Shown here piece by piece: positions 33,899 to 34,598 of a DNA stretch of 64,000 bases. Position numbers and translations under genes: made by a program. Every line of letters starts with the position of its first letter. The stretch's first letter is position 1. The stretch spans positions 907 through 64,906 of the forward strand of contig JAIERK010000130.1 of assembly GCA_019746975.1 (NCBI GenBank), written 5' to 3'. The notes under the pieces were generated by a model. It made no database searches. It saw nothing but the letters and a program-made list of their open reading frames with translations, and was not told the DNA's origin. The stretch comes from Candidatus Obscuribacterales bacterium (GTDB lineage: Bacteria; Cyanobacteriota; Vampirovibrionia; Obscuribacterales; Obscuribacteraceae).

Positions 33899-34598
33899 GT
33901 GGGGCAAGAAAAGTGTCAATATAAAGGATTCCGATCTGAACAGTTATCCCGACCACCAAGTACCCCCCCCTCTTGCGGAATTCGCCAGAGACTGGCCCGG
34001 CCTTGACTACGATGAAGAGTCCAACGAGATCTTCCTCTATCACGGCACCAATTGCTATCGACGCTGGGAGATTAACAAGTCCGGATTCCTGGAGCCCGGT
34101 CGCAACCACTACAGCTTCTTCTCGACAGATCCGCTGGATGCTTACACTTATGCTCGAGCCGCTTGCATGCGCGACATCGGGCCGAACTCTTTCAATTCCT
34201 TGATTTGTGAGCCGGTCGTACTCAAAGTAAGGTTCAACAGCAGAACCTGGCTTCAGGTCGACTTTTTGAAACTGAGCACCGGTGAAGACACGGCGGCCTC
34301 TGTTTTTGAAGCTGCAGTGCTTGGCCCTGTCTCGTGCACCAACATCGTTGACGTCGTACACTGCACGCACGGAAGGCGCCTGGGAGCTGGTGATTCCAAT
34401 CGGACATTCGAAGATGGCCGATTCCTCGATAGCATTCGCCATCTTAGAGACAAGCTGGGGCAGAATCGCGTTGATTCCTGGGTGTTGAAAAAGCTAGGAA
34501 TAATGCGACAAACAGTTGAAGTCAAGCTTTCCGGCGGGGAAGTCCCTGAGTTGACTTCCGATGACCATTTGAGGAAGCTTCGGCAAGCGAGAGCCTGA
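33899..34598 (+). CDS. putative ADP-ribosyltransferase-fold protein (Tpt1/KptA NAD-lobe-like); reading frame needs a 1-nt correction at a C8 tract, or a non-canonical start
   Basis: The frame is open from 33900 to the stop at 34596-34598. It encodes ...EIFLYHGTNCYRRWEINKSGFLEPGRNHYSFFSTDPLDAYTYARAA...ICEPVVLKVRF. Its first canonical start is only at 34167, downstream of the conserved YHGT. A GTG at 33899, preceded by AGGAAA, is in the adjacent frame and would join this frame if the C8 run (33963-33970) were C7. Confidence 0.45.
33963..33970 (+). repeat. homopolymeric C8 tract between the SD/GTG and the conserved domain of the ART-like ORF
   Basis: Read directly: ta-cccccccc-tc at 33961-33972. 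Confidence 0.9.

Follow-up and report, generated by a model that had tools for sequence, protein, structure and literature searches.

The infC gene is an example of a gene with a conserved near-cognate start codon (AUU), and its expression responds to initiation factor 3 (IF3). Near-cognate start codons are discriminated against by IF3 (PMC9723500). In E. coli, the efficiency of initiation from CUG is ~1-2% of that from AUG (bioRxiv 10.1101/063800), and among annotated prokaryotic genes, CUG starts are very rare, being reported as 'few' (PMC5622118). Among RNA 2'-phosphotransferases, Tpt1 is built of an N-terminal winged-helix RNA lobe (~85 amino acids, aa) followed by a C-terminal lobe that binds nicotinamide adenine dinucleotide (NAD+), and this NAD+ lobe has the ADP-ribosyltransferase (ART) fold and is related to ADP-ribosylating toxins (PMC6333775). 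The present work concerns an ART-like gene in a stretch of 64,000 nucleotides (nt) from a Candidatus Obscuribacterales bacterium (assembly GCA_019746975.1, contig JAIERK010000130.1, positions 907 to 64,906 of the forward strand), the whole of which is called the window below. With good confidence, the locus is read here as an intact single gene (33936-34598, + strand) that is conserved across the order Obscuribacterales, starts at CTG, and encodes a stand-alone ART-fold enzyme. The order belongs to the Melainabacteria, which are related to cyanobacteria and do not photosynthesize.

The gene resembles infC in that a weak codon behind a good Shine-Dalgarno (SD) sequence appears to have been held across deep divergence. 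It differs in the codon itself, CUG or, in one clade, ACG, which are far rarer as starts than AUU, GUG, and UUG, and in that the ART-like gene encodes no translation factor. Orthologs were found in 74 further species, with one match each, almost all of them labelled Obscuribacterales, Obscuribacteraceae, or Melainabacteria. The window protein was 99% identical to that of L011, an 'uncultured Candidatus Obscuribacterales' metagenome-assembled genome (MAG), and a protein search with the long reading frame returned >130 homologs, the named sources of which were Melainabacteria, Obscuribacter, and 'Cyanobacteria bacterium' MAGs. An exhaustive HMMER search of 1.84 billion representative proteins with the family profile gave 20 matches. 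One of these, P0137 (E = 6e-6), is a repeat protein of the Calx-like type and was judged spurious; the remainder were members of the family or fragments, and the search revealed no link to other ART families. Judging from these searches, the family is closed and restricted to the Obscuribacterales lineage. A 193-aa database protein, P0126, joined the first ~100 family residues (from LYHGT) to an unrelated C-terminus and probably stems from a chimeric contig or from a frameshift in the gene call.

Proposed initiation codon of the ART-like gene

The following elements of the gene are referred to in this section:

33924-33928, + strand: Shine-Dalgarno sequence AAGGA, 7 nt upstream of the CTG
33936-33938, + strand: proposed initiation codon CTG, from the codon-level conservation of the aligned column
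33936-34598, + strand: coding sequence (CDS) of the predicted 220-aa ART-fold protein, with the stop codon TGA at 34596-34598
34167-34169, + strand: internal ATG (Met78), the start of public gene calls, giving a 143-aa product

The long frame on the + strand is preceded by TAG (33888-33890) and is open from 33891 to TGA 34596-34598; its translation includes ..EIFLYHGTNCYRRWEINKSGFLEPGRNHYSFFSTDPLDAYTYARAA..ICEPVVLKVRF.. The first ATG, GTG, or TTG in this frame is the ATG at 34167, which confirmed on the sequence what the initial annotation had stated. The resulting 5' extension of 92 codons that contains no canonical start ranked second in length among those of the window's 114 stop-to-stop open reading frames (ORFs) with 120 codons or more; the one longer extension and most of the others lay on the strand opposite a long ORF. 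A long start-less extension of this kind was found in no other clear real gene of the 64-kb window, so the window gives no evidence that CTG starts are common in this genome. The apparent lack of a start codon is explained here by the gene most likely beginning at a rare conserved CTG.

Start codons were counted in 75 sequences, namely, the window and the 74 species (one genome scanned per species), and the information content was calculated from 53 non-redundant species with <85% nucleotide identity. The aligned start column, situated 32-34 codons upstream of LYHGT, contained 54 CTG, 10 GTG, 4 TTG, 2 ATG, and 5 ACG codons and never CTC, CTT, CTA, or TTA. As a control, fifteen other conserved Leu columns were inspected, and these used all six Leu codons, CTG and TTG together making up 8-64% of each; the share of CTG among the Leu codons of the family genes was 25%. 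The third base of the start codon was invariant (2.0 bits), and a three-base periodicity of 0.73/1.02/0.31 bits began at this codon and was present downstream of it only. A conservation peak, GAGGA/AAGGA, was located at -12 to -8 with ~1 bit per position (median energy of the anti-SD duplex, -6.0 kcal/mol), and the region upstream of the SD sequence, from -45 to -16, was unconserved (~0.05 bits). Thus, a near-cognate start column under codon-level constraint was found together with an SD sequence at functional spacing.

The length of the CDS was likewise uniform when counted from the proposed start (213-234 aa in all sequences), as against 143-291 aa in database calls. Of the 75 sequences, 23 lacked any ATG, GTG, or TTG from the upstream stop up to LYHGT; among the 54 sequences with CTG, this was true of 22, and 37 had no in-frame canonical codon between the upstream stop and the CTG. 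At the same loci, the downstream neighbour gene started with ATG in 54 of 65 cases, which indicates that ATG is the usual start codon in these genomes. On a neighbour-joining tree, CTG was ancestral, with a change to GTG/TTG in one clade and to ATG in one species. Based on these comparative codon data, we infer that translation very likely starts at the near-cognate CTG 33936-33938 and yields a 220-aa product; a non-canonical start had been one of several options named in the initial annotation. In bacteria, CUG is very rarely conserved as a start codon, and the 75 sequences provide codon-level evidence for CUG as well as for ACG.

Two points weigh against a start at CTG. First, CUG supports initiation poorly in E. 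coli, which may or may not apply to Obscuribacterales. Second, in 17 of the 54 CTG sequences, an in-frame ATG, GTG, or TTG that is possibly usable lies upstream, and in the clade of the window an upstream GTG or ATG has an SD sequence of its own. The start could instead be a different codon in front of the CTG or close to it (e.g., ATA 33921-33923 or, in some lineages, a canonical codon of their own), or translation could depend on the overlapping upstream ORF, in which case the CTG would be merely a conserved Leu codon. This is improbable, since no upstream codon was positionally conserved, an in-frame stop lay 2-10 codons upstream of the start column in 17 species (17/75 sequences), and the sequence before the SD was unconserved; moreover, a plain Leu would show all six codons, as it did in every control column, whereas the variation in the start column was exactly M/V/L(/T), by way of NTG or ACG.

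The second place where a start might be assumed is the internal ATG. In public collections, at least 10 clusters consist of proteins of 143-154 aa called from this codon, and the real product might therefore be only the 143-aa ORF from ATG 34167, or the locus might be a pseudogene that has lost its start codon, inactivation being another option of the initial annotation. Both variants are very improbable: the block that is most conserved in the family (H36, G37, T38, N39, C40, R42, R43, and E45, all invariant) lies within the 77 residues before Met78, the region before Met78 was open in all 75 sequences, the Met78 column contained Met in just 36 of the 75 (Leu in 23 and Ile in 14), and the start-less state together with the conserved CTG was maintained across lineages down to 33-35% identity. 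By this comparison, ATG 34167 is not the true start of the gene, and the CTG is retained as such. Gene callers that accept only ATG, GTG, and TTG shorten the family to a fragment of 143-154 aa in many Obscuribacterales genomes. Both the block of highest conservation and the His predicted to be catalytic are missing from this fragment, an error that is correctable.

ACG was found at the start column of L076, L077, L078, L079, and L081, in each case behind a good SD sequence of the GAGGA type. L078 and L081 had no usable canonical start, the only in-frame GTG of L078 being situated 2 codons before LYHGT. The ACG clade was monophyletic on the neighbour-joining tree, with one member using ATG, and ACG accounted for 6 of 47 Thr codons in the genes of this clade. 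The ACG of this clade is a candidate for a natural bacterial ACG initiation codon; to our knowledge, no conserved ACG start has been described in bacteria.

Proline codons of the C8 run and the GTG ORF

Two further features overlap the 5' part of the gene:

33963-33970, + strand: C8 run, in-frame CCC CCC CC(T), corresponding to Pro10-Pro12 of a conserved V-P-P-P-L motif
33899-34006, + strand: GTG ORF of the initial annotation, 35 codons in the other frame, overlapping the proposed start

In the initial annotation, the start of the gene was held to depend on the C8 run, which was regarded as a possible site of slipped-strand phase variation, frameshifting, or homopolymer sequencing error, with the protein starting at GTG 33899 and joining the long frame when the tract has seven C residues. 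Several of the observations behind this explanation stood: the run is the sole C8 run of the 64-kb window; GTG 33899 has AGGAAA (33889-33894) 4 nt upstream and lies in a frame different from the long frame; and the arithmetic of deleting one C holds, fusing both frames into a product of 232 aa. The end of the GTG ORF had to be corrected, as its stop is TGA 34004-34006 and not 34001-34003 (one codon off).

The run lies nine codons into the gene, and the frame is the same on either side of it. In the orthologs from the 74 Obscuribacterales species, the long frame ran through the tract without a shift and encoded PDHQ-VPPPL-AEF, and full-length homologs read ..(F/Y)PDHQVPPPLAEFA..LYHGTNCYRRWE.., matching the long frame of the window, whereas the N-terminus produced by fusion of the frames (..SRPPSTPP..) matched no ortholog N-terminus. 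In L001, L002, and L011, which are independent assemblies of near-identical strains, the tract was GTACCCCCCGCTCTT, and in L012, a species with 95% identity, it was GTACCTCCACCTCTA; in all four, the length and frame were unchanged and the differences were substitutions only, so that no variation of tract length was found among the assemblies compared. A homopolymer was absent from this position in most species, e.g., CCTCCGCCT. The upstream GTG/ATG was not conserved either: the codon equivalent to GTG 33899 was ATG in L013, where the ORF was 4 codons long, and in L014, ATA in L017, and was absent in L015 and L016, and the peptide of the GTG 33899 ORF was not conserved among relatives. This ORF could be, at most, a clade-specific upstream ORF.

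Since the orthologs kept the same frame on both sides and the tracts of close relatives were of equal length with substitutions, phase variation, frameshifting, and homopolymer error were rejected, and the chance that the run acts as a switch, a frameshift site, or a sequencing error is considered negligible. On this comparative evidence, the C8 run consists of ordinary proline codons and is not a genetic switch, and the gene is not frameshifted, phase-variable, or decayed, which removes a false lead from its interpretation. The locus resembles phase-variable contingency loci in having a C8 homopolymer near the 5' end of an ORF; it differs from them in that the tract is in frame within conserved codons, is constant in length among relatives, and is missing in most species. 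In the Pro codons of the tract, positions 1 and 2 were conserved (1.2-1.7 bits) and position 3 was free.

A conserved Pro-Pro(-Pro) motif was observed 10-12 codons after the weak start in the window (33963-33974) and in orthologs. Polyproline runs require elongation factor P, and the motif may, speculatively, be a second translational bottleneck.

Fold of the protein and comparison with Tpt1/KptA

The predicted parts of the protein are as follows:

34017-34373, + strand: ART-fold core, residues ~28-146, from Foldseek and conserved residues
34041-34043, 34110-34112, and 34209-34211, + strand: candidate triad of His36, Tyr59, and Glu92, respectively, from conservation and position in the model
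34419-34586, + strand: C-terminal three-helix region, residues ~162-217, from the AlphaFold2 (AF2) model

The AF2 model had a mean predicted local distance difference test (pLDDT) score of 83.7 and consisted of a beta-rich core (residues 31-143) and three C-terminal helices (162-176, 179-198, and 208-217; pLDDT 66-86), in the C-terminal part of which L170, R178, and L215 were invariant. In the family alignment of 67 sequences, H36, G37, T38, N39, C40, R42, R43, E45, E92, C143, and H145 were invariant, Y59 was at least 90% conserved, and R56 was nearly invariant. H-Y-E-like ART triads have His on strand 1, Tyr on strand 2, and Glu at the start of strand 5. In the AF2 model, H36 is located at the end of the strand 31-39, Y59 on the strand 59-63, and E92 just before the strand 93-100.

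In structural comparisons of the model using Foldseek, ART-fold structures were at the top of both searches, with modest scores. Against the PDB, the best match was Tpt1 8tfi (E = 2.4e-3) and the second was CC0527; yeast Tpt1, TreTu, PARP14, DarT, tankyrase, pertussis S1, and NarE were also matched, the entries for Tpt1 being 8tfi and 7yw4. Against BFVD, the best E-value was 3.7e-5, and DarT (E = 4e-4) and other phage proteins were found. Sequence comparisons led to the same group of proteins: residues 35-86 matched positions 87-137 of the 183 positions of the NCBIfam profile NF002013 (RNA 2'-phosphotransferase; E = 0.0022), a search of PDB sequences with the single sequence gave Tpt1 at E = 0.0097, and the 67-sequence alignment was matched by hhalign to residues 97-169 of E. 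coli KptA (64% probability, E = 6.4e-5, 73 columns), with FLYHGT, HY(S/V)(F/H)(F/L)S, and PV(V/I)L(K/T)V aligned. Consequently, the motif-by-motif resemblance to Tpt1 without its RNA lobe, which had been noted in the initial annotation, was borne out, although each of the scores (NCBIfam, PDB, hhalign, and Foldseek) was weak. The protein probably has an ART fold that is nearest to the NAD+ lobe of Tpt1/KptA.

Several results count against this assignment. The NF002013 score of 17.6 bits was far under the cutoff of 231, so the protein fell below the threshold of the Tpt1/KptA family; the family profile detected Tpt1 among PDB sequences at E = 0.16, which is weaker than in the single-sequence search; the Foldseek matches had template modeling scores of 0.29-0.5 (0.3-0.6 when PDB and BFVD are taken together) and modest E-values (best in the PDB, 2.4e-3); a Pfam scan of the protein at E up to 10 revealed no family and hence no match to DUF952; and the triad positions were taken from the secondary-structure string and not from a superposition on an NAD+ complex. 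It could be argued, accordingly, that the protein has an ART-like fold that does not use NAD+, serving as a binding module or for other chemistry, or that the fold match is spurious. Besides the weakness of all similarity scores, this alternative is favoured by the second-position His of Tpt1 aligning with the invariant Phe61 and by the second structural match being to DUF952 (CC0527; Pfam PF06108), for which we know of no function. However, independent methods all converged on ART-fold proteins only, and His36 in the HGT motif and Glu92 before the PVVL strand were both invariant; on balance, the alternative appears unlikely, with an appreciable chance still attached to it. The preferred assignment remains an ART fold, and the protein most likely binds NAD+ and transfers ADP-ribose to some acceptor; like the promoter and the regulatory logic considered below, catalysis is only a tentative part of this reading.

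Tpt1/KptA proteins gave the best sequence and structure matches, and FLYHGT, (H)Y-x-x-x-S, and PV(V/I)L-x-V were aligned with residues 97-169 of the E. coli protein. The differences from them were as follows. The ART-like protein has no winged-helix RNA lobe and so lacks the two-lobe architecture, with 33 residues before LYHGT that contain a single helix (13-19) in the AF2 model. Because this lobe is absent, three of the four residues of the Arg-His-Arg-Arg tetrad have no counterpart, and the fourth, which in Tpt1 belongs to the NAD+ lobe and precedes YVHLS, aligns one residue off the near-invariant Arg56. The His of the Tpt1 motif YVHLS is replaced by Phe61, the Ser that KptA has before the PVVL strand corresponds to the invariant Glu92, and ~75 residues are added at the C-terminus. 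In view of the absence of the RNA lobe and of three tetrad residues, the ART-like protein is not a Tpt1, and it probably binds NAD+ in a Tpt1-like way. For enzymology, it would represent a lineage-restricted branch of the ART superfamily, nearest to the Tpt1 NAD+ lobe and without the RNA lobe. An RH dipeptide in the C-terminal helix (IRHLR) was considered as a relocated Arg-His of Tpt1; as the family does not conserve this dipeptide, the idea was rejected.

Like its Foldseek neighbours DUF952/CC0527, DarT, and TreTu, the protein has a compact ART core and lacks accessory lobes for nucleic acids; it differs from them in having no Pfam match at the sequence level. According to the titles of PDB complexes, DarT is partnered by DarG and TreTu by TriTu, whereas the ART-like gene has no conserved adjacent antitoxin, immunity, or macrodomain gene; in the conserved-synteny comparison and the Pfam and PADLOC scans, no antitoxin, macrodomain, or defence gene was found to be associated with the locus, and the PADLOC scan of the protein itself gave no match. 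The single copy found in each of the 74 species and the conserved synteny indicate that the gene is not a mobile toxin module.

Candidate promoter, putative translational control and gene neighbourhood

Two features precede the SD sequence of the gene:

33838-33865, + strand: candidate promoter of the SigB/group-3 sigma type, with GTTTAG (33838-33843), a 15-nt spacer, and GGGCATA (33859-33865)
33874-33879, + strand: SD-like GGAGGT, close to where the leader is predicted to begin and ~10 nt downstream of the -10-like element

The motif G(G/T)TTA(G/A)-N15-GGG(C/A)AT was found upstream of the gene in 70 of the 75 sequences, with a background of 0.016 per 220 nt, the median distance from its end to the start codon being 66 nt; the copy in the window is located 70-98 nt upstream. 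The consensus of B. subtilis SigB promoters is GTTTAA-N14/15-GGGTAT (PMC9847131), and the motif of the window agreed with it in 5/6 and 5/6 positions with a 15-nt spacer, as a pattern match only to a Bacillus consensus. The likeness to SigB general-stress promoters thus consists in GTTTAG-N15-GGGCAT at fixed spacing in 70/75 sequences, and the difference is that the consensus comes from Bacillus and the match in Obscuribacterales is one of pattern; it should be noted, as an argument against this assignment, that the consensus belongs to a Firmicutes sigma factor and may not be that of the host. A scan for sigma-70 promoters found none, and no SigB-like motif at the right spacing was found before the neighbouring coiled-coil genes. 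These data suggest that the gene may have a stress-type promoter of its own and a leader of ~65 nt; this, too, is a tentative part of the reading.

As for the leader, an Rfam search of 33600-34100 gave only a chance-level RT-6 match (13 bits, E = 4.2), RNAalifold of the leader and start region from 23 species predicted 0 pairs and hence no riboswitch or conserved hairpin, and the leader of the window was not more stable than shuffled sequences (z = +1.04). A terminator scan revealed one terminator-like site inside the gene, at chance level. An SD-like motif at most 28 nt after the -10-like element was found in 30 of 73 sequences and was not followed by any consistent start codon. The upstream GGAGG might pair with CCUCC-like Pro codons, an option that was dropped because the complement was not conserved. 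TTAATCT was observed ~8-10 nt upstream of the bipartite motif in many species.

The following scheme may be proposed. The SigB-like stress-type promoter would transcribe the ART-like gene, probably along with the downstream gene; ribosomes would bind the conserved SD sequence and initiate inefficiently at CUG, which would keep a potentially NAD+-consuming enzyme at trace level and may add sensitivity to IF3 fidelity; and the ART-fold enzyme would ADP-ribosylate some target. A single base change from CUG to AUG, GUG, or UUG would strengthen the start, and CUG persisted nonetheless; its retention in most family members, one clade having ACG instead, could reflect selection for very low and possibly IF3-sensitive translation. 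That the near-cognate start kept across the order is a selected translational control which, with a stress-sigma promoter, would let an ART enzyme of a new family be made only in trace amounts or when IF3 activity drops is a conjecture that we regard as doubtful. If correct, it would place an infC-like logic on a gene outside translation and would include a natural bacterial ACG start.

The neighbourhood of the gene was conserved. A giant coiled-coil protein (1685 aa in the window, with apolipoprotein-like repeats) was encoded on the same strand directly upstream in 73 of the 75 sequences. The downstream gene (34620-35708, + strand in the window) begins 21 nt after the stop of the ART-like gene and was conserved at this position in 59 of the 75 sequences, with a gap of a few tens of nt; given this short distance and its conservation, it is probably co-transcribed with the ART-like gene. 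Neither of the two downstream neighbours had a match in Pfam or PADLOC. The protein encoded by the downstream gene has a hydrophobic signal-peptide-like N-terminus and low-complexity sequence, with about six tandem Q/M/P-rich units of ~21 aa (..NQGMTQF(S/P)PMSGVPTQPMMQ..).

An antisense ORF of 200 aa (33840-34442, - strand) overlaps the ART-like gene, and similar antisense ORFs were found in 50 species; since they shadow a conserved CDS, their recurrence is explained by this overlap, and the ORF was not considered a gene. In the window, three consecutive coiled-coil proteins of 466, 447, and 1685 aa with apolipoprotein-like or phasin-like repeats are encoded at 25851-33746 (+ strand), the largest of which has a long acidic, low-complexity middle part rich in Pro, Glu, and Ala. 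Upstream of these genes, the region 19315-25518 contains a lipoyl synthase gene (- strand) and a complete pyruvate/2-oxoacid dehydrogenase cluster encoding E1 alpha, E1 beta, E2, and E3 (+ strand).

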